From contig JBDRRF010000110.1 of the NCBI GenBank assembly GCA_043825875.1, positions 1 to 64,000 of the forward strand: DNA of 64,000 bases, in the 5' to 3' direction. The position numbers and the translations under genes are program-made. Shown piece after piece: positions 5,129-57,620 of the stretch. Under the pieces are notes generated by a model. The model worked only from the letters and a program-made list of their open reading frames with translations. It was not told the origin of the DNA and made no database searches. The stretch is from Pseudomonadota bacterium (lineage in GTDB: Bacteria > Desulfobacterota > Desulfobacteria > Desulfobacterales > RPRI01). Position 1 is the stretch's first letter. Each line of letters begins with the position of its first letter.

Positions 5129-5292
5129 GAGCCACTTTCAAAACGTTTCAGTTTGGTCAAGCTCAAGGCGGGCGAAAATTTCAACCACAGGAATACATTT
5201 AGTATTTCGAGGATAGCGCTAAAGCTTCACTTCGTGCGAAATTTGAGCCCAACGCAGAGATCGGCCAAAATGGGGCGTTTTGAAACTGGCTC
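5129..5292 (+). mobile_element. MITE-like repeat, copy 2, with a 22-bp internal insertion
   Basis: GAGCCACTTTCAAAACG...CGTTTTGAAACTGGCTC, flanked on both sides by TAAG (5125-5128, 5293-5296), a candidate target-site duplication. Confidence 0.85.
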
Positions 5293-5322: not shown

Positions 5323-6138
5323 ATGTATTTAACTCTTCCGGAATTTTACAAAAATAAATATCCTTTTAAAATCGGTACCACATCTTACATATATCCTGAT
5401 CATATGATCCCCAATGTTAAAATGCTTGCCCCCTTTTTAGATGAAATAGAACTTCTCTTTTTTGAAAGCAGACCGCCAGGTAGTATTCCTGCAAAAAATG
5501 AAATAGAAGCACTGCATGAAATTTCAAAAGAACATGGCACAACATATAATATTCACCTTCCAACAGATATATTCCCAGGCAGCAGCAATTATAACGAAAG
5601 GCTTCGCTTTGTTCATACAATTGTCAATATTATTGACCTTACCAAAATATTATCGCCATCCACCTATACTTTGCATCTTTCATATCCTTATGATCTTGAT
5701 AAAACCAAATGCGATCAGATATGGCTTAACAATATCTATTACAGTATGACAAAACTAATGGAGTCAGGAGTAAATAGTAAAACAATATCAATAGAAACTC
5801 TTGAATATCCTTTTGAGTGGATTGCTGGTGTTATATCGGACTTTAATTTATCCGTTTGTATTGATGCCGGACATTTACTGAAATACGGCTATGATACGAA
5901 AAGAGTATTTGATAATTATCTTGATATTACTACCATAATACATTTACATGGTGTTAAAAACGGCCGTGATCATCAATCACTCGACAAACTCTCATACGAA
6001 CAAGCCAAAACTCTTATAAACCTTATGCACGGATTTACCGGAACCCTATCCATAGAAGTATTTTCTTTTGACAATCTCTTACCATCATTGCAGTATTTTA
6101 AAAACTGTTATCAATCTTTCAGACAAACAGATTCTTGA
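5323..6138 (+). CDS. cbiR: AP-endonuclease-2/xylose-isomerase-like TIM barrel; probable cobamide-remodelling phosphodiesterase
   Basis: GTTSYIYP start; ELLFFES, HLP, IETL, CIDAGH, HLHG, DH and IEVF metal-binding motifs. Confidence 0.65.
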   Translation: MYLTLPEFYKNKYPFKIGTTSYIYPDHMIPNVKMLAPFLDEIELLFFESRPPGSIPAKNEIEALHEISKEHGTTYNIHLPTDIFPGSSNYNERLRFVHTIVNIIDLTKILSPSTYTLHLSYPYDLDKTKCDQIWLNNIYYSMTKLMESGVNSKTISIETLEYPFEWIAGVISDFNLSVCIDAGHLLKYGYDTKRVFDNYLDITTIIHLHGVKNGRDHQSLDKLSYEQAKTLINLMHGFTGTLSIEVFSFDNLLPSLQYFKNCYQSFRQTDS

Positions 6139-6361
6139 TTATAGGTTTTTCATTAATTGCTTCATGAAAGTAGAATACCGAATATTTTCATAAAACTAAT
6201 AGATTTCAAATGCAAATCATGATAACAGATTACCGAAGATAAAAAGTTGGTTAGTAAACCCTATATCGTGTAGCCTTAGCCTTGTAACTCATAGTGATAT
6301 CAATTCATACGATGAATTTCTAATAAAGTGGAAGACTGTTTTTTCGTAATAGGAGTAATAA

Positions 6362-6601
6362 ATGGCCCACAAACTTTCCTTATCCTGGCTTGAAAACTTC
6401 CTCGAAGAAGCATGCGAATCGCTCCGTGGCAACATGGATACATCTGAATTTAAAGAGTATGTCATTGCCATGCTCTTCTTAAAGCGTCAGATGAAAGAAT
6501 CTTTTTATAAACACCATCAACTCAAAAAAGCCCTCATGACCGTCCTTCTAACGGGCAAGGTCCGGGTGAAGTATGAAGAAGTAAAAACGGAGGCAATGTA
6601 A
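6362..6601 (+). pseudogene. Fused remnant of type I R-M HsdM N-terminus and HsdS C-terminus
   Basis: [33 protein letters not shown] (HsdM N-terminal) joined to [16 protein letters not shown] (HsdS C-terminal). Confidence 0.75.
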
Positions 6602-7626
6602 TGGCAAAAAAGAAAACCGGCTACATTCCACCTTTTACAATAACATCGGAAACCGTTCGCCTCGTTTCAGAAATAAGCGAAACATTGGGCCGTTTTTCAT
6701 CTTCTAACCTGGCTGATATGACTCCAATGCTCAGGCGCGGAAATCGTTTGCGGACTATTCAGGCATCGCTGGCCATTGAAAATAATACACTAACCCTTGA
6801 ACAGGTAACTGCCATCTTTAACGGCAAGAGAGTGCTTGGAAGTCCCCGCGAGATACAGGAGGTCAAAAATGCCTTTGCTACTTATGAAATGTTCGAAAAA
6901 TTAAATCCGTTATCCGAGAAAGATTTATTAAAAGCTCATAAAATCCTGATGTCTGCTCTGGTCGATGAAGAAGGCAGCTACCGTTCCGGCGGGGTCGGAA
7001 TAGTTAAAGGGAAAGAAATTGTCCATTTAGCTCCGCCCGCAGTTCGTGTTCCTGCATTAGTGCGGGATTTGTTCGCCTGGCTTAAAGGTGCCGATGCTCA
7101 CCCTCTAATCGCAAGTTCTGTATTCCATTACGAGTTTGAATTTATTCATCCTTTTGCCGACGGTAACGGCAGAATGGGGCGCTTATGGCAAACACTCATC
7201 TTAAGTCGATGGAAACCAGTCCTGGCATTTCTTCCGGTGGAAACTGTCATTTGTAATAGGCAGGATGAGTATTACAAAGTACTGGCAGCATCAGACCAGC
7301 TTGCTGATTCCACTGCATTTGTTGAGTTTATGCTGGCCGCAATAAAAGAAGCTCTTTATGAGGCTATCGAAACCGACCAAGTTAGCGACCAAGTTAGCGA
7401 CCAAGTTAAAAAAATATTGCAAATTTTAATCAAGGGTTCTCTTTCTGCATCAGACCTAATGAAAGCGCTCAATTTGTCCCATCGGCCAACCTTTAGAAAA
7501 AATTATCTCCATCCGGCGATTAATAAAGGATTTATCGAAATGACTATACCTGATAAACCCAATAGCCGTATACAGCAATACAGAATAACATCCAAAGGTA
7601 TTTCAGCCATCAAGGAGCAAAAATAA
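6601..7626 (+). CDS. Fic-family protein with C-terminal HTH
   Basis: HPFADGNGRMGR Fic motif; SLAIENN inhibitory motif; DQVS linker repeats. Confidence 0.9.
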   Translation: MAKKKTGYIPPFTITSETVRLVSEISETLGRFSSSNLADMTPMLRRGNRLRTIQASLAIENNTLTLEQVTAIFNGKRVLGSPREIQEVKNAFATYEMFEKLNPLSEKDLLKAHKILMSALVDEEGSYRSGGVGIVKGKEIVHLAPPAVRVPALVRDLFAWLKGADAHPLIASSVFHYEFEFIHPFADGNGRMGRLWQTLILSRWKPVLAFLPVETVICNRQDEYYKVLAASDQLADSTAFVEFMLAAIKEALYEAIETDQVSDQVSDQVKKILQILIKGSLSASDLMKALNLSHRPTFRKNYLHPAINKGFIEMTIPDKPNSRIQQYRITSKGISAIKEQK

Positions 7627-7840
7627 TGTCCGAATACACCAATGTTGAACGCCCTTTTATCGACAAACTCCGTCAAGTCGGCTGGGAAGTCATCGACCAA
7701 GGCACAGGCTTTATCCCCCAGGACCCGGCTGTAAACAGAGGCGTGAGCATTTCAAGGAAACTATTCTTACCAAAGAGTTCTGCAATTCGCTAAAGCGCAT
7801 CAATCTTCCCAATAACGGCAGCTCCTGGCTGACCGAAGGT
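7626..7840 (+). pseudogene. hsdR: Type I R-M HsdR N-terminal fragment
   Basis: MSEYTNVERPFIDKLRQVGWEVIDQG, frameshift, FKETIL..SLKRIN..WLTE, then truncated. Confidence 0.65.
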
Positions 7841-8309
7841 ATTGATGAGACGTATTAAGCTATTAAACTTGAATCAAAAACAGATTTGACCATATTTTCT
7901 TACTGGTTGTCTTTACACTAAAATAGCGGGTGGCCTTTTACTTTCCAATATAGGTCGAGTTATTAAATGCTTATAAGTGACATATTTTTCATTGATAGCT
8001 TCCTGTTAGTGATAATTTGTTATATCCAGTTTGATTGCAACCTTTCAAATGGAAGTCAATGACGATCATCTTTATCGGGACCCTGACTAATCCCGGGATT
8101 ACATCCAGTCATAACGCTTAGTGAATTTGAGGTATACAGGGTAGGTCGCCGCCATTACTTTTTTTGTGAGGATTGCTTAATTGTTATTGTACCGTATTTT
8201 AATCGTAGTATGTTAAACGGAAACTGGATAACACAACAAAAGAGATATTAGCTGAGACAAACAGTCTTATGAGAACAGATGGTTACGTTAAGTTGTATTT
8301 TATGTCTTC

Positions 8310-8367
8310 TTGATTGGCCTGAAACTTCTTGATATTATCCATAAAACTACATAATGATATGTTAGAT
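8310..8367 (+). promoter_or_regulatory. Candidate cassette promoter plus attI-like simple site
   Basis: TTGATT-N17-TATTAT (8310-8338), then ACATAAT-GATAT-GTTAGAT (8349-8367): degenerate L box, 5-bp spacer, GTTRRRY core. Confidence 0.5.
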
Positions 8368-8414
8368 AATTTACCTTTAGCACTATCGACCTGTAATATA
8401 ATAAAAGGAGTGTC

Positions 8415-11192
8415 ATGTCGGAAGCTGGCGGTACCACAACACAATCAGGCATCCATTACCAAAACTCCATTGCGGCCCTTTACCTTGGGCGTTTATTAGA
8501 TCCGCGCCAAAGGACAGCTAGTGAGCGTGTCGTCCAAGTTAGGGTGGAAGCGCCCGAGCACGTTGATGACATTGTCGTGCGATATGCAGATGGTAGTCGT
8601 TCATTCATCCAAGCTAAGGAGTCTCTATCACTATCTTCGAAAGAGTGGGGTAGGTTATGGATTGACTTTGCATCGCAAGCTCAAAAATGTACAACTGAGA
8701 ATTTTTGCCTCATACTTGCTATCGGTACAATCTCAAGTGATATTGTAAACCTCCGTGAACTTTGCGATCGAGCAAAAGGGAAGCAAAACCATGAGGAATG
8801 GAATGATAGCCTTTCCTCTGCCTTAAAAAAGGTTGCTCAAAAAATTATTGACGTCGTACCCAAGAAGTCTGTCAACGCAGCCTTCGAGTTGGTCAGATTT
8901 GTTGAAGTTTGGATTTGGCCACTCAATACAATTGAGCGTGATCTAGTCCCGCTTTGGATTCCCCCATCATCTTCTTCACAAAATTCACTTTTTGAACTCT
9001 TGCGCGGTAAGGTCGGCGGAAAAGCAAGAATTCGCGGTTTATTCAGCATTGCCCAACTTCTTGATGAATTATTTGTCAAAAACAAAGTTAAAATTAATGA
9101 GGTTTCCAGCTGGGGTATAGATGCTTACCTCCAAGCGATCAGAACGGAGATGGGAATTCTGTCCGTCCCTGGAACAAAACTTAAGGGGCCAATCGAGGAT
9201 ATTTTTTTCTGGATGCCATTATATGATCGTGCCAATGACAAGGCCCATGTTGATTTTGAGAATGAGGATCCCCGATCGCGATGGGAGCGACCAAATGAGA
9301 TTATCGACTTACGTGATTTCCCACGCGGAAAAATCGGTCGAGCGGTAATTGATGCAGGAGCAGGCTTTGGCAAGACAACCATGTTGCACGCTATTGCATG
9401 TAATCTCTGCCATAGGGTCCACATTCCCGTCTTAATTTTACTTGATGCGCTAGCTTATTCAAATATATCCGTGCTTGGTTATCTCAATGACAAGATTAAT
9501 GCCGAATACGATGTATCAATAGATTGGGAACGACTATGTGAAGGTGGGCGTGCCGTAGTTTTGTTTGATGGACTAGATGAACTTTCAGGAGCTGATCGTA
9601 CCAGCGTATTAAACACAATTATCAAATTTGCTGCGCGCTTTCCTAAATCAGCTTTTTTGCTCACAGTAAGAGACAGTACAGCACTTACAGTGCCACTTGG
9701 AGTATCGGTACTGGCGCTAAATCGACTGGATGATTTTGCGATAAGACAATTTGCAGAAGCATATGCGCCATACGGGGCCAGCTTGTCAGCAGATGCACTC
9801 TCTATTCACCTTGAGCGACATCCTGATCTATGTCATTTGCTTCGAATCCCTTTGTTCTTGGCTTTGGTACTCGCAAGTGTTGGCCCAAAAGACAATCTTC
9901 CGAGCTCACGTTCTGAGCTATTAGAACATTACCTGTCATTGCTTTTTTCGCCCGAAAGATACAAAGCCATGGCAGTACCATTGCCCCCATTATATGATTT
10001 GCGAGAAGCTGCTGAACTTCTTGCATGGCGTGGTTTAGAGGGGGATGGAATCGGCCTTGCTGAGATAGAGGCGAGACGGTTACTGAAGGGGCAAGGATTA
10101 AGCGAACAATCTGACGTATATATTGAACGGTTAGTGCAAATTGGTGTTTTACGGCGTGCAGCAGCTCGTTTACGGTTTGCATATCCAATTTTGCAGGAGT
10201 ACCTTGCAGCTTGCTGGATGGTCGCTAATGCCCCAAATGAAATTGGCCCACGTTTCGCAAGTATAAATCGCCGGCCTTGGGCTCAAACATTGCAATTTGC
10301 GCTTGAAATGCATCCGTATTCAGGCACTATTATCAATAATCAACTCAAAGCTCCAGACGATGTTTTCCATACTACTTTACGCCTCATTGCCCGCTGTATC
10401 GTGAATGGTGCCAAAGTAATCCCCGAGATTAAGAAATTGGTCGGTGACCGTCTTGCTGAAGCCTGGCCCTCAGAGGCAGGTTCTATTGAGAAGAGTATCG
10501 GCTATCTTCTTGCGGATGGATTTCTTGATCCTTTGCCGCAAAAAGCGGTCAAACATATATCTACTTGGGCGCTAGGCTCTGGTGGTGCTGAAATAGTTGC
10601 CGCAAAATTATCACCCCCCCTAACGAAGGAGATACTAATTAAATTTATTGCGAAGGATCTGGATTTCAGGCGTAATCTTCATGGTTGGCAGGTCGCGGTA
10701 GATGATATAGCTGACGAAGCCCTTGACCTCTATCTTAAGAGGGTTCGCGAGAGCCGGACCACCGAAAAAGAACTCGATTCCTTATCGTCACTTATTGCAG
10801 CATTACCACCATCTCATCTACGCCCCAATCGTTGGCATGAAATCACAACGGATTCTACGCTGCCACCAATTATTCAGCTTGCTGGTTATCGATTAGGGCC
10901 TCGCCCAGTGCCCTCGAGCGCATGGAGTGTCATAAGCGAGGTGATCAGTCTTTATGAATCAGACGAATCAAATTATATGTATGGTTATCTTGCATTCAAG
11001 CTATATTGGAATATGGATGATGCTGGAGATAAGTTCGTACAAATGCTGAATGATCCAGCGGTACCCGAAAAACGGATTCAATCAAGCTTAGAAGGTCTCT
11101 TGAGAAGCTATATGGATAATAATGCTAAACGCGAGCAATTCTTTGGCGCGCCATTAGCAAATCAAACCTTTCGCGAAATATTCTTTTTCTAA
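8415..11192 (+). CDS. NACHT/STAND NTPase with N-terminal PD-(D/E)xK nuclease-like domain (NLR-like defence protein), 5' part
   Basis: G-YQ..VDDIVV..FIQAK nuclease motif; Walker A AGAGFGKTT; Walker B VLFDGLDE; IPLFL; FAYPILQEYLAA. Confidence 0.8.
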   Translation: MSEAGGTTTQSGIHYQNSIAALYLGRLLDPRQRTASERVVQVRVEAPEHVDDIVVRYADGSRSFIQAKESLSLSSKEWGRLWIDFASQAQKCTTENFCLILAIGTISSDIVNLRELCDRAKGKQNHEEWNDSLSSALKKVAQKIIDVVPKKSVNAAFELVRFVEVWIWPLNTIERDLVPLWIPPSSSSQNSLFELLRGKVGGKARIRGLFSIAQLLDELFVKNKVKINEVSSWGIDAYLQAIRTEMGILSVPGTKLKGPIEDIFFWMPLYDRANDKAHVDFENEDPRSRWERPNEIIDLRDFPRGKIGRAVIDAGAGFGKTTMLHAIACNLCHRVHIPVLILLDALAYSNISVLGYLNDKINAEYDVSIDWERLCEGGRAVVLFDGLDELSGADRTSVLNTIIKFAARFPKSAFLLTVRDSTALTVPLGVSVLALNRLDDFAIRQFAEAYAPYGASLSADALSIHLERHPDLCHLLRIPLFLALVLASVGPKDNLPSSRSELLEHYLSLLFSPERYKAMAVPLPPLYDLREAAELLAWRGLEGDGIGLAEIEARRLLKGQGLSEQSDVYIERLVQIGVLRRAAARLRFAYPILQEYLAACWMVANAPNEIGPRFASINRRPWAQTLQFALEMHPYSGTIINNQLKAPDDVFHTTLRLIARCIVNGAKVIPEIKKLVGDRLAEAWPSEAGSIEKSIGYLLADGFLDPLPQKAVKHISTWALGSGGAEIVAAKLSPPLTKEILIKFIAKDLDFRRNLHGWQVAVDDIADEALDLYLKRVRESRTTEKELDSLSSLIAALPPSHLRPNRWHEITTDSTLPPIIQLAGYRLGPRPVPSSAWSVISEVISLYESDESNYMYGYLAFKLYWNMDDAGDKFVQMLNDPAVPEKRIQSSLEGLLRSYMDNNAKREQFFGAPLANQTFREIFFF

Positions 11193-11929
11193 TGCTGCTT
11201 TGTTTAGCTATTTTGGGTGACGAGAAAGCAGAACAAGAAACGGTGCCCATGCTTCTTGATCAGGATTTCGACAATGTGTCTGCTTGGCTCCTTCAAATCA
11301 ATAAATTCAGCGAGACAACAGTGCGCAATGGAGCAATGATTCTTTCGGGGCGACCAATCAAAGCAAAACAATTATTGAAACTTATTGGTTCTGCAGATTT
11401 TGGCTTGAGCTTTAAGACCAATGCATCGATTTCTGGCGCGGCTGCTGGTAACGAACCATATATTCACCCGTCGCGTGCTGAGATGCTAAACAGTTTGTTA
11501 GCAAACCTGAAGGATGATGATGAAAGCATCGATGCCCTGCGGGTTCGACTGCAAGCGGGAGATACAGGCGCTCTCGAACGGCTTATTGCTGAAATCAGTA
11601 GGTTCATCGAGGGATTTCAAGGGTTCATGCCATTCGACGATGACCATAATGTTAGCTTCACACTCTACATCATCGGTCAACAAAGCTCATCCTTGCCTAT
11701 AGATATTCTCTTTCAAATAATCGATAAGTCATCTTCAAACGCTGGTCGAGATGCAGTCGATTTGATAGTTCGTAGTGGTGATGATAAAGTTATACTACCG
11801 CTATTGGAACGGTATAACTCGCGAGATCATGACTTTGTCCATGAAGGAATCTTTGCTGGTCTCGAAACGCTAGGTGGACGCTATGGCAAGCGCTTTGTCC
11901 GTGAAGGTGCCAAGCTAATAATTGAATAG
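11192..11929 (+). CDS. Helical-repeat C-terminal part of the NACHT protein (probably frameshifted from 8415-11192)
   Basis: This frame stays open upstream of the ATG (LWRAISKSNLSRNILFLML), overlapping the first ORF's end; no clear RBS. Confidence 0.6.
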   Translation: MLLCLAILGDEKAEQETVPMLLDQDFDNVSAWLLQINKFSETTVRNGAMILSGRPIKAKQLLKLIGSADFGLSFKTNASISGAAAGNEPYIHPSRAEMLNSLLANLKDDDESIDALRVRLQAGDTGALERLIAEISRFIEGFQGFMPFDDDHNVSFTLYIIGQQSSSLPIDILFQIIDKSSSNAGRDAVDLIVRSGDDKVILPLLERYNSRDHDFVHEGIFAGLETLGGRYGKRFVREGAKLIIE

Positions 11930-11939
11930 GATGACTATA

Positions 11940-11998
11940 TTCTAACATTCGGCTTGACTCCGACTGGGCTGCGCCCGCTGGTCAGCCAAACGTTACTC
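11940..11998 (+). other. Integron attC site (59 bp)
   Basis: R'' TTCTAAC, L'' GGCTTGAC, central GGGC-TGC-GCCC hairpin, L' GTCAGCC, R' GTTACTC; one extrahelical base in L''. Confidence 0.85.
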
Positions 11999-12258
11999 TC
12001 TTTCAATCAGAAATAAATATTTTTCAAAAAATCCGGCAGCATTTCTTTGTAGGTGAAGACAGCGATTCTGGCGGTTTGACGATCTTGAAAAATATTAATT
12101 CTGTTTTTTTGTTGAATACTTCCTAAAAGAAGGAAATCTAACAAATTCATCCAAATAGTAGATTTCTAACGGAAACCATGATAAAAATAACCCGAAATTA
12201 ATCTTAAAAAAGAAACCACTGTTATTGAATAGAAACTATTCAATAACTTATTAGGACT

Positions 12259-12792
12259 ATGAATAAAATCATAATAATAGGCAATTCCGGTTCCGGAAAA
12301 ACATGGTTAGGAAAGAAGTTAGCTTCAGTTCTCGGAATTTCGCATATTTCATTGGACAATATTTTCTGGGAGCCTGGTGGTTACAACCGGAAAAGAGACG
12401 ACTTCGATGTTGAGGCCGATATAAAAAGAATTCAAAGCTATGAGAGTTGGATCGCTGAAGGAGTATTCGGTCACCTCATTGAGCCACTAACTGTCTTTGC
12501 TGATACTTTAATCTATATTAACTTGCCTTGGTGTGAATGTAAGAACAACCTATTAAATCGAGGCTCTGAGAGTTCTATGCAACTGGACCCAAGAAAAGCA
12601 GAAGAAAATTTCCAATCGCTTTTTGAATGGGCTTCTGCATATGAGACTCGGGACAGTAAGGCTTCCAAAAGATATCACAGTTTTTTGTTTGAGAGTTTTT
12701 CAGGACAAAAACATATGGTTTCTAACCGTGATGAGTTTGATCGGTTAATAGAAATATGGCTAACCCATCCTTTAACTATGACCGAGCGATGA
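12259..12792 (+). CDS. P-loop kinase, adenylate-kinase/FlaR (topology modulation)-like; cassette gene
   Basis: IIGNSGSGKT, LDNIFW, WIAEG motifs; 3' end runs into an attC. Confidence 0.75.
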   Translation: MNKIIIIGNSGSGKTWLGKKLASVLGISHISLDNIFWEPGGYNRKRDDFDVEADIKRIQSYESWIAEGVFGHLIEPLTVFADTLIYINLPWCECKNNLLNRGSESSMQLDPRKAEENFQSLFEWASAYETRDSKASKRYHSFLFESFSGQKHMVSNRDEFDRLIEIWLTHPLTMTER

Positions 12793-12826
12793 AACACCGC
12801 CCGGCATGTTAAGGGCTATGTTTTGA
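12758..12826 (+). other. Integron attC site (69 bp)
   Basis: R'' GGCTAAC, L'' CCTTTAAC, paired central stem, L' GTTAAGG, R' GTTTTGA. Confidence 0.8.
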
Positions 12827-12844
12827 AAATATGAAGGATTAACA

Positions 12845-13048
12845 ATGGATATATCGACTTTAATGTGGGGACTGATATTTGGTTCAATCGGTTTAGGATT
12901 TTTTGTTTATGGCAAAAAACAAAAAGCTGTTATTCCTCTTTTTAGCGGAATAGGATTAATGGTAATTCCATATTTTATTTCAAATATATTTATTCTTGTT
13001 GTCTCAGGTATTGTTTTGATAGCATTACCTTATTTCATTAGAATTTAA
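12845..13048 (+). CDS. Small membrane protein (cassette gene)
   Basis: 67 aa, hydrophobic, YGKKQ motif; RBS AAGGA; starts 18 bp after the attC core. Confidence 0.7.
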   Translation: MDISTLMWGLIFGSIGLGFFVYGKKQKAVIPLFSGIGLMVIPYFISNIFILVVSGIVLIALPYFIRI

Positions 13049-13134
13049 TGGAATATGTTTCTAATTGAGTTAGAAATTTTAATACTACATCTTTCATTCT
13101 ATGAAAGCCACATAACAAAGCTAAACAACTCGTG

Positions 13135-13267
13135 GATAGTGCGGTACACCCTTTAGTTATTCAGTTTCTTTTAATTCAAGCCATAATACGCTTATTCTTT
13201 TAATTTTTCGGTTAAGATTTTTTTACCATATCTCAGTTTCTCCCAAACCTGTGATAAGAATATTCTT
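13135..13267 (+). repeat. ~135-bp dispersed direct repeat, copy A
   Basis: GATAGTGCGG(T/A)ACACCCTTTAGTTATTCAG...CATATC(T/A)CAGTTTCTCC shared with 15072-15206. Confidence 0.8.
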
Positions 13268-13415: not shown

Positions 13416-13760
13416 ATGAACAATCAAAACCTGCCAGCAAAAACCGAATTCCTTCTCTATCAAACAGAAGATGGCCGCATCCGAATTGAAACGCGCATGC
13501 AGGATGAGACTGTATGGCTGACTCAGCAGATGATGGCAGGACTGTTCCAGACCACAAAACAGAATATTAGTCTTCATATTCAAAATATCTTTGATGAAGG
13601 TGAATTAAATCAGGAAGCAACTGTCAAGGATTTCTTGACAGTTCATCAGGAAGTTTAGCGCAAGATCCAACGCAATCTAACTTATTGCAATCTGCTGAAG
13701 TAGAAAAGGAACTTAAAAAGATTGAGACATCTGCAAAAAAGAAAAGCAAGCATAGCATAG
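13416..13760 (+). pseudogene. rhuM: RhuM-family protein remnant
   Basis: LLYQTEDG..ETVWLTQQMMAGLFQTTKQNISLHIQNIFDEGEL; premature TAG, then an apparent jump to a C-terminal-like EVEKELKKIE. Confidence 0.75.
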
Positions 13761-13949: not shown

Positions 13950-15014
13950 ATGTCTAAAGAAAGAAATGCAACAAGCGATGCGCGGTTGTCCGATGATATG
14001 AGCCATGTTGGAGATTTGCCCCAAGGCTTGGACTTCCTGGAGACGAATGCCCATCTTATCATGGGCGAGTCACAGGGTTATGACATTTGTCTGCTGCCTC
14101 TTTTCTGGCATGTTGGGGGAGGCCGACAGGGAAAGTGGCGGGTCGATGAAGTTTTAATGTGCCAGACCACTTTTTTTATTTTGCCCCAAGACCAAAGGGG
14201 CAGGATGCAAGATAACGACTTTATCGGCAACCGCCAAGACCCAACAGAGTGGATAGGTGGTGATGTCCAAATCGTAGAGCACCCCGATAGGATAATCTGG
14301 CAGGTTGGAAATATGCAGTACATATGCCGCCCGCCCTATTGGGAAATTAAGGGAGAGCACATGGGAGTGATGTGCGACCTGCTCTTGGGGGGGATGGGAA
14401 AAGCCGATCGCACTTTCGGGCCCTGGTCCAACCTGGCTACGACTCGCCGTGCCGGCTATGATCAGCGTTGCTGGGTCGAGGGTACTATAACCGTAGGTGG
14501 TCAGAAATTTACTTTGGAAAATGGTTATGGTGGCCATGAGATACTGACCCTGGGGGAAACCTGGGACCATATGAAAGCCATGGGCCAGGCGCCATATTAT
14601 TGGATATCGGGCATGAACGAATCAATACAGATTTTTCTGTTTGCTATGCCAGGTGCGGGAATCAGCTATGGCCGAATCTATGTGGATGGTCTGGAGATTC
14701 CCTTCAGTCAGGGCGAGATCTTCGTAAATGATCTGGAATTGTGGATTGACCCAAAGACTGGCATGCAAGTACCCATAAGGTGGCATGTTAATATGAACTC
14801 GGCAGGTGGTATTGCGGACATGGAAATTGTTGCCGGTGGAAGGGGTCTGTTTTGCGTGTTGACGCGATCAGGCTATACCCTGCGGTATCCGTTTCTTTCG
14901 CGGGCCAACGGCCATATATTTCTCCCCGATATGAAACGGGTTTCTATTGACAATTTAATGATCTATGTTGAGTGGGGCAGATCCGCTATGCCTCTGTCTG
15001 GAGGAGCCCCGTGA
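13950..15014 (+). CDS. Hypothetical all-beta protein, AttH/CrtC/tocopherol-cyclase-like fold suspected
   Basis: RBS AGGAGAG; Trp/Gly-rich; VEGTITVGG..G-G-HE and WIDPKTG-QVPIRW motifs; visibly higher GC than flanks. Confidence 0.5.
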   Translation: MSKERNATSDARLSDDMSHVGDLPQGLDFLETNAHLIMGESQGYDICLLPLFWHVGGGRQGKWRVDEVLMCQTTFFILPQDQRGRMQDNDFIGNRQDPTEWIGGDVQIVEHPDRIIWQVGNMQYICRPPYWEIKGEHMGVMCDLLLGGMGKADRTFGPWSNLATTRRAGYDQRCWVEGTITVGGQKFTLENGYGGHEILTLGETWDHMKAMGQAPYYWISGMNESIQIFLFAMPGAGISYGRIYVDGLEIPFSQGEIFVNDLELWIDPKTGMQVPIRWHVNMNSAGGIADMEIVAGGRGLFCVLTRSGYTLRYPFLSRANGHIFLPDMKRVSIDNLMIYVEWGRSAMPLSGGAP

Positions 15015-15071: not shown

Positions 15072-15206
15072 GATAGTGCGGAACACCCTTTAGTTATTCA
15101 GTTTTTTTTAATTCAAGCCATACATAATACGCTTATTTTTTAAAAATGTTCAATTAAGATTATTACATATCACAGTTTCTCCAAAACCTTTAATAAGAAG
15201 AATCTT
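15072..15206 (+). repeat. ~135-bp dispersed direct repeat, copy B
   Basis: Homologous to 13135-13267. Confidence 0.8.
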
Positions 15207-57478: not shown

Positions 57479-57620
57479 GAGCCACTTTCAAAACGTTTCA
57501 GTTTGGTCAAGGTCAAGGCGGGTGAAAATTTTAACCGCAGGAATACATGGAGTATTTCGAGGATTAAAATTTTCACTCAACGCAGAGATCGGCCAAAATG
57601 GGACGTTATGAAACTGGCTC
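57479..57620 (+). mobile_element. MITE-like repeat, copy 3
   Basis: 142 bp GAGCCACTTTC..GAAACTGGCTC; absent from the paralogous leader at ~60580-60595. Confidence 0.88.

Follow-up and report, generated by a model that had tools for sequence, protein, structure and literature searches.

The locus

The window, the whole 64,000-nucleotide stretch formed by positions 1–64,000 on the forward strand of contig JBDRRF010000110.1 (GenBank assembly GCA_043825875.1, Desulfobacterales, RPRI01), contains a one-cassette array lying directly behind an integron attachment site, attI, and a putative cassette promoter (Pc). Homology with a complete integron in a related genome identifies the left end of this locus as a genuine attI and Pc platform, from which the integrase gene intI has been deleted. 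The cassette holds one gene of a widespread Cap4-NACHT receptor family, which in this copy is divided by a frameshift into two open reading frames (ORFs) and is most likely inactive. An attI without its own integrase gene here carries an immune cassette that is oversized and probably inactive, each ingredient being of a previously known kind. The host genome is labelled G000 and the window contig C110; other G-numbers denote compared genomes and L-numbers fetched loci, and the genus set comprises 17 genomes (G000 and 16 others). Feature coordinates are collected in Table 1.

An attI platform with a deleted integrase gene

Of the 16 other genus genomes, G011 and G015 carry arms 75–79% identical to the 127-bp arm at the left end, which terminates at GTT, and a third holds a partial copy without the core. 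A core-pattern search of 401 genomes of the phylum added three more places in two genomes, G615 and G547. G615 has two homologous arms, a solo arm on C1 and another on C4 that forms a complete integron with an attC array and, beside the arm, a divergent integron integrase of 444 aa. Window positions 8151–8363 match the G615:C4 platform at 158 of 225 positions (70%), the match running some 20 codons into intI, and it is because the alignment includes the intI start that loss of this gene from the window platform is deduced. Aligned alone to the start of the 444-aa enzyme, the stub left in the window scored 100, against a maximum of 64 in 2,000 shuffles, and its altered start codon lies 157 nt from the crossover, compared with 155 nt in G615. 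An intact intI or a long intI pseudogene at 7.9–8.3 kb was rejected, only the decayed 5' stub being found there, so that no intI adjoins attI as in a complete integron; a search of C110 with the four host integrases (tblastn, E 10) gave zero matches.

Similarity among the six aligned arms stops at GTT, with a different, unrelated gene behind each, whereas TTGA, the 17-nt spacing and TATTA of the promoter are kept in 6/6. Solo copies of the window arm type (W-type) occupy five places in five genomes. BLAST of the arm against 301 genomes of the order gave convincing matches only inside the genus, and arm profiles did not detect a further copy in G000, or any copy at 26 genus intI loci or at 75 loci of NACHT-gene homologues. 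A single viral-contig match to the core pattern falls inside a phage gene and was set aside as chance.

The first-pass annotation, made from the letters alone, had proposed a chromosomal integron that lost intI, with a TTGATT-N17-TATTAT promoter and an ACATAAT-N5-GTTAGAT attI. All three elements of that proposal hold: relatives were compared for an intI near 7.9–8.3 kb, G615:C4 has the arm beside an intact intI as well as a homologous attI, the stub remains, and the promoter gains weight from its conservation in the other arms. The term 'integrase-less' fits the locus and not the genome, where four integrases over the TIGR02249 cut-off, with no internal stops, are encoded on other contigs (C51, C68, C107 and C79). 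The C79 integrase is nearest to the G615:C4 enzyme (48% identical overall, 64% over 310 aa); cassette shuffling at the window attI would now depend on an integrase in trans, and the C79 enzyme is probably the nearest relative of the lost one.

Boundaries and size of the cassette

The cassette is closed by attC1, a site whose R'', L'', L' and R' elements fold on the bottom strand, and its 5' core is complementary to R'' at six of seven positions. The bottom-strand hairpin, compared with 200 shuffles, has a z-score of -3.2, with 0/200 shuffles as stable. Two home-built covariance models were applied, R1, from 19 attC sites on other contigs, for which attC1 is the sole match in the window (20.1 bits, E 0.024), and R2, from 47 attC sites, for which it is the top match (E 0.13). 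An anchored attC score, trained on 31 sites outside the window contig (leave-one-out range 16.8–47.7), reached 35.9, whereas the highest value over 25 surrogate windows was 25.5; no Rfam family reached its gathering score anywhere in the 64 kb. The 59-bp attC first placed at 11940 is therefore well matched, and both covariance models missed the other proposed site, at 12758. The 6/7 pairing of core and R'', also noted at first pass, was confirmed, the core at 8361 giving the best match among 11 GTT in 7800–8414. For comparison, 33/39 other attC-to-attC intervals in seven G000 arrays have at least 6/7 complementarity and 28/39 have 7/7, as do both other solo arms with a readable first attC.

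The median length of these 39 intervals is 638 bp. The longest measures 3,255 bp, a reverse-transcriptase insertion included, and the second longest 2,232 bp. Positions 8362–11992 are thus the first and only cassette of the window array, and an unusually large one, whose promoterless gene starts 54 bp behind the crossover. A search of 400 other genomes of the class yielded no second copy of the cassette, and assembled contigs, which drop rare forms, showed no joint at its boundaries. Contig C108 of G000 was tried as an empty site and discarded, its hairpin being different.

Large genes also stand behind other arms of this family. The solo arm of G615:C1 is followed by a 4,799-bp single-gene cassette (L214:7732-12531; core/R'' 7/7; attC with GAT for GTT) encoding a sacsin-like ATPase and helicase with a Tiamat TmtA-like N-terminus, which exceeds the 4-kb survey limit, and the G015 arm by a methyltransferase-ATPase module that measures at least 3 kb and runs off the contig. 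The G011, G547 and G615:C4 arms begin with small genes. The first cassette of the complete G615:C4 integron, at L215:8068-8889, presumably encodes a lincosamide nucleotidyltransferase, lnuF-like.

A Cap4-NACHT gene divided by a frameshift

Three full-length homologues switch frame at 11132 in tblastn alignments, with 71–75% identity from 11132 on, and ORF2 aligns to the last ~245 residues of homologues. The single 3.6-kb NACHT gene described at first pass is accordingly two ORFs split near 11130. Homologues typically have ~1,170 aa; among the 119 listed (window protein excluded), 104 are 1,150–1,240 aa long and only two are 900–950 aa.

The Pfam NACHT model scored 21.2 bits, under its cut-off of 26.7. 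The nuclease residues D51, D52, Q66 and K68, the Walker A K320 and the Walker B D388 and E389 are invariant in 28/28 aligned homologues and present in the window. A structure model was made for P0002, an 82% homologue (predicted local distance difference test score 84), whose NACHT module resembles NLRC4 (Z 23.3, root-mean-square deviation (rmsd) 4.3, 397 residues aligned), and whose N-terminal domain resembles the HamA, LmuA and Cap4 nucleases (Z 12.3–12.6, rmsd 4.0–4.7, 187–196 aligned). The top Foldseek match is Avs3 (SeAvs3, PDB 8dgc; E 5.5e-10), and structural alignments to known systems have only 11–14% identity. A fold search with the sensor solenoid of P0002 gave generic HEAT/ARM matches only (best Z 8.8, rmsd 8.2, 335 aligned), and a search by sequence gave no solved relative, its matches being designed repeat proteins. 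EruA, DS8 and HyoA profiles stayed far under their cut-offs (EruA 35 bits versus 1,000, a weak match in the NACHT region), and six accessions and four motifs were not found in the seven supplements of PMC13581612 searched.

Two hallmarks of the STAND class (signal-transducing ATPases that carry numerous domains) are present, a NACHT module with intact Walker A and B motifs, and an N-terminal cell-killing effector with a predicted Cap4/LmuA/HamA-like fold and invariant D, D and QxK; a complete C-terminal sensor in one chain is seen in the homologues, but not in the window copy. The intact protein would most likely join a Cap4-like nuclease, a NACHT module and a helical sensor into an Avs-like sensor of a phage protein that oligomerises and degrades DNA. 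The label of an NLR-like (nucleotide-binding, leucine-rich-repeat-like) defence gene thus stands, on the conserved catalytic and Walker residues and the Avs3, NLRC4 and Cap4 structural matches. Of the large antiphage cassette earlier placed in the promoter-proximal slot, the 3.63-kb first cassette is retained and the working gene is not.

Table 1. Features of the cassette locus and its surroundings (window coordinates)
Feature	Position	Strand	Description
Decayed type I restriction-modification (R-M) remnant	6362..7835	+	hsdM fragment, intact fic (6601-7626), hsdR 5' fragment; Pfam HsdM_N, Fic
Non-coding block shared with relatives	7836..8005	.	joins hsdR break; 90% identical to G008:C20 3710-3880
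Decayed 5' intI stub	8151..8206	-	start codon altered, small deletion, stop; remainder of gene absent
Conserved platform arm	8237..8363	+	Pc and left half of attI; homologous arms in G011, G015, G615, G547
Pc-like sigma70 promoter	8310..8338	+	predicted, TTGATT-N17-TATTAT; consensus and conservation in six arms
attI simple site	8349..8367	+	L box ACATAAT, 5-nt spacer, core GTTAGAT; crossover after 8361
Gene cassette	8362..11992	+	3,631 bp; G+C 0.449 versus 0.391 in genome
ORF1, 925 aa	8415..11192	+	nuclease of Cap4/LmuA/HamA-like PD-(D/E)xK type, then NACHT ATPase and initial part of helical sensor; reading frame lost over final ~20 codons
Frameshift in NACHT gene	11128..11134	+	tblastn of homologues
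ORF2, 245 aa	11192..11929	+	C-terminal HEAT-like part of same gene; ATG overlaps ORF1 stop
attC1	11940..11998	+	59 bp, closes one-cassette array; fold, covariance, anchored score
Repeated ~65-bp segment	11992..12055	+	begins at attC1 R' GTT
Repeated non-coding block	12060..12220	.	holds ATCTAAC stub at 12136; five other G000 copies overlap stub
Second, decayed attI-like site	12221..12256	+	inverted repeat, then ATT for GTT at 12250
P-loop kinase-like cassette gene, 177 aa	12259..12792	+	reads through own attC; NCBIfam PRK08118-like, below cut-off
attC2	12758..12826	+	69 bp; fold and anchored score
67-aa membrane-protein gene	12845..13048	+	cassette status doubtful
Possible left half of truncated attC	13110..13133	+	cut off by repeated block 13135-13267

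Homologues of the cassette gene

Loci of 45 metagenomic and 30 genomic homologues (75 in all) were fetched, most of them distant (30–46% identity), with only three above 60%, one of these lacking the 3' end. Among the listed proteins, P0002–P0019 are closest, at 63–82% identity; P0002 and the Geomonas protein WP_129127642.1 are examples of intact natural homologues. An IntI match was found at 0/75, and the covariance model gave one weak match over 71 loci, 3 kb off. The homologues at these loci accordingly lack the cassette boundaries, which might have counted against a cassette had they been fixed in one place; they are not so fixed, and this combination points to recent capture. The closest metagenomic homologue, L040, on a contig without the gene end, has an upstream AT-rich motif that looks attI-like by eye and scores at background level against the window core. 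Three plasmid records hold distant relatives of the gene (30–44%), and in L049 a homologue lies between pglX and pglZ in a BREX-like (bacteriophage exclusion-like) locus.

The right end and a second landing site

The array was first drawn as continuous, running through the kinase-like gene and its attC, the small membrane gene and two further R''-like stubs, a continuity that the evidence does not support, although the elements named are present. The ~65-bp segment that starts at the end of the cassette occurs in 10 copies in G000 (on C22, C28, C31, C76, C89, C109 and C10 among other places) and at 25 places in 5/17 genus genomes, seven of them behind an attC scoring at least 20, many others behind an attC decayed by eye, and none behind an attI arm. 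Beyond it, the kinase gene sits behind the second, decayed attI-like site, the motif of which recurs at C51, C45 and C76, followed at C51 and C45 by GTT and a gene. A 68% homologue of the kinase in G218 is flanked by two attC, and because of this the gene is taken on sequence grounds as a real cassette gene, at a separate and older landing site.

Both the kinase-like gene and attC2 are thus present, attC2 folding well (z -3.5) although both covariance models miss it; its anchored score of 26.7 compares with 24–26 for three unrelated window sites, and its best support is the G218 cassette. With attC1 and attC2 760 bp apart, the locus falls under the definition applied for a CALIN (attC-site cluster without integron integrases), at least two attC within 4 kb and intI not nearby, but the two sites belong to different landing sites and the second goes unrecognised by the home-built models. 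The 67-aa gene exists as an ORF, but its homologues in G011, G013 and G036 (81–87%) have no attC by eye. Neither stub forms an attC: that at 12136 has a fold z of -0.85 and a left-half score reached by 2.8% of genome AAC sites, and lies in a repeated block, and that at 13110 (ACATAAC) has a fold z of +0.76 and a left-half score that 1.2% of AAC sites also attain. An array of four cassettes was rejected, and the window array has one. Repeated non-coding blocks (13135–13267, 15072–15206, 6142–6258 and 12060–12220) recur at variable loci in G000 and relatives.

Origin of the locus

A chromosomal integron platform lost intI by deletion except for its 5' stub, leaving attI and the cassette promoter, at which an integron integrase presumably inserted the 3.63-kb single-gene cassette; the boundaries are there to be seen, and the event itself is reconstructed from them. 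By analogy with Avs3 and Avs7, the helical C-terminal sensor of the protein would bind a phage protein, upon which the NACHT ATPase would oligomerise and the Cap4-like nuclease cut DNA, killing the infected cell. The frameshift in the sensor has most likely inactivated the gene, the cost of exposing a toxic nuclease in the promoter-proximal slot being a possible reason. The kinase cassette downstream belongs to the separate, older landing site. This account as a whole appears likely to be correct.

Several observations weigh against it or are weak when taken alone. A 6/7 core/R'' match is reached by 4.8% of 158,909 GTT sites, and the TTGATT-type promoter is at chance level, with 13 sites found and 14.1 expected; both gain weight from conservation in the five other arms. 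The empty-site pattern, the attI-like left side joined to the 65-bp segment, was no commoner in the 17 genomes than a reversed control. The 58 homologue loci that span the complete gene plus 250 nt of downstream sequence, a set with some duplicates, have no convincing attC (no score exceeding 17.5), so that the cassette form has been observed once and its capture looks like a one-off. The supporting count of defence genes beside homologues, with PADLOC matches at E 1e-15 or better at 8 of the 18 loci examined out of 75, was made without a background control; four further loci with partial or generic defence matches were left uncounted. One assembly and its probable source run, which is not independent of it, are the only sources for the frameshift, and contigs hide rare alleles. 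Lastly, the ~65-bp segment is read as a marker of array ends because six type I solo arms in G000, of a different arm family, have it downstream; it follows only this one W-type arm, and it was not found in the fetched G615 and G547 stretches; the left and right ends of the window cassette may thus be a chimera.

In such a chimera the cassette, formerly the last of another array, would have been moved behind attI by an IntI-mediated or deletion-type rearrangement and not by simple insertion of a circle. Besides the distribution of the ~65-bp segment, this origin would suit the 7836–8005 block, which breaks off at GTT, and a core match one position short of that in most G000 intervals. Yet the core at 8361 is still the best partner of R'' among the upstream GTT, and the segment could be the native right half of a W-type empty site, so that a rearranged origin seems possible but rather unlikely.

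A broader proposal takes orphan attI/Pc arms to be landing pads dedicated to large defence genes that have just become cassettes, integrase loss locking in the long ones, and the window to record the recent de novo origin of a cassette and its subsequent inactivation. It invokes the 3.6-kb STAND nuclease of the window, the 4.8-kb Tiamat-like helicase gene of G615, the methyltransferase-ATPase of G015 (at least 3 kb) and the STAND relatives that lie in defence islands without attC. We regard it as speculative and doubtful; were it true, cassettes whose length hinders cycling would be held in place once the local integrase was lost.

Less credible than capture followed by inactivation is a split gene that still works, translational coupling yielding two chains that reassemble a receptor. 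The TAA/ATG overlap at 11190–11194 lends itself to coupling, and both parts are 71–82% identical to intact homologues, with no other lesions. However, some 20 residues are out of frame inside a helical repeat, the homologues are overwhelmingly of full length as noted above, and the absence of further decay fits a recent break equally; a functional split is improbable. Still harder to maintain is an assembly error that hides a gene intact in the cell, as the metagenome-type assembly and the single lesion might invite: a Logan contig of depth 30 from the probable source run is identical and gap-free over 6000–13175, with the same frameshift letters (although probably from the same reads, and contigs drop rare variants), and the lesion lies outside any homopolymer run. 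Insertion at a secondary site (attG) behind a resident promoter, giving a SALIN (one attC site without an integron integrase) and no integron platform, would explain a lone cassette on a contig devoid of intI and has a precedent in efficient insertion at 5'-GWT-3' in E. coli (10.1101/2022.09.11.507474), but it was rejected as scarcely credible, since the target retains an intI stub, has been used repeatedly in five other places and shows homology to an attI that adjoins an intact intI, the G615:C4 platform homology largely refuting it.

Relation to known systems

Integron defence systems have been reported to be small and streamlined, with which a 3.6-kb NLR-like cassette contrasts. Antiphage integron cassettes are also the subject of Kieffer et al. 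(10.1101/2024.07.02.601719). Surveys use a 4-kb limit between attC, and the 3.6-kb and 4.8-kb cassettes suggest that large immune genes are captured and under-counted; the window locus shows that orphan attI sites can take up very large defence genes.

CALINs, intI deletion and possible action in trans have already been described (PMC4889954, PMC9668308, 10.1101/2025.06.18.660453). Deletion of intI is a named origin of intI-less arrays and is reported for Xanthomonas (10.1101/2025.06.18.660453). The locus resembles CALINs, SALINs and intI-deleted integrons (Cury et al., PMC4889954; Loot et al., 10.1101/2022.09.11.507474) in having attC-bounded cassettes with intI elsewhere in the genome. It differs from CALINs and SALINs in that homology to an integron outside classes 1–3 reveals its attI, its Pc and an intI stub of ~55 bp; 95% of CALINs have no recognisable intI pseudogene (Cury et al. 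2016, PMC4889954), and IntegronFinder seeks only class 1–3 attI and Pc (PMC4889954). Median cassette genes measure 362–575 bp (PMC5371416) or 402 nt (PMC7370490), length limits being called not stringent, with excision ~20-fold lower at +3 kb for one attC pairing (PMC5371416).

Antiphage cassettes are described as shorter than their non-integron counterparts (Darracq et al., 10.1101/2024.07.02.601686); the window cassette is like them in placing a promoterless defence gene in the promoter-proximal slot, and unlike them in that this gene has the full size of its own family (3.5 kb). Avs3 and Avs7 with Cap4 effectors and Avs10/Erebus/bNACHT were described by Lee et al. 2026 (PMC13581612). The window gene shares with SeAvs3 (PDB 8dgc) and SeAvs7 the order nuclease, STAND NTPase, helical sensor, and departs from Avs3, Avs7 and Erebus in its low structural identity, its EruA score, its generic sensor fold and the frameshift of this copy. 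An Avs-type gene as an integron cassette was not found in the titles and abstract starts of the literature searched, though examples may be present in Table S4 of Darracq et al. Because the relatives of its gene are not cassettes, the locus offers a candidate system for work on cassette genesis, a process that the cited papers call unknown.

Other orphan arms and neighbouring features

The window arm is a separate family among intI-less arms in G000. A profile built from five other arms found 11 that reach the core (on C89, C31, C22, C109, C4, C76, C28, C46, C45, C100 and C67), and a second intI-less family on C91, C109 and C97 matches arms that adjoin intI in G016 and G008; two of its members are no more than 1.6 kb from a contig end. 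Further attI-like sites are seen at C51:82391 and C45:24703, and these sets make up at least three intI-less families besides that of the window arm, scattered over G000. Reverse-transcriptase ORFs, group II intron-like by eye, lie inside or adjoining cassette arrays in L119 (G000:C109, ~61800–65040) and L116 (G000:C68, ~65370).

The decayed R-M locus noted upstream at first pass was verified against the full hsdM...fic-hsdR locus of G011, which is 92–94% identical and to which the window match ends at 7835. In G008 the same chromosomal position holds a comparable remnant, behind which lie other R-M genes. Two RNA runs gave only short partial matches to the window. Contigs of an RNA run of the same study match window 8055–8099 with different flanks; this stretch may be the terminus of a further gene or cassette left upstream of the intI stub. 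An imperfect palindromic repeat of ~124 bp, resembling a miniature inverted-repeat transposable element, occurs at 8–131, 5138–5283 and 57488–57611; 250 copies aligned over at least 100 nt in G000, 65 of them at contig ends, and it mimics attC in simple scans. The truncated ORF at 13416–13658, which we take to be RhuM-like, matches the start of a 348-aa gene in G005, and a 354-aa lipocalin-like gene at 13950–15014 has many paralogues in G000 (C31, C41, C79 and C109).

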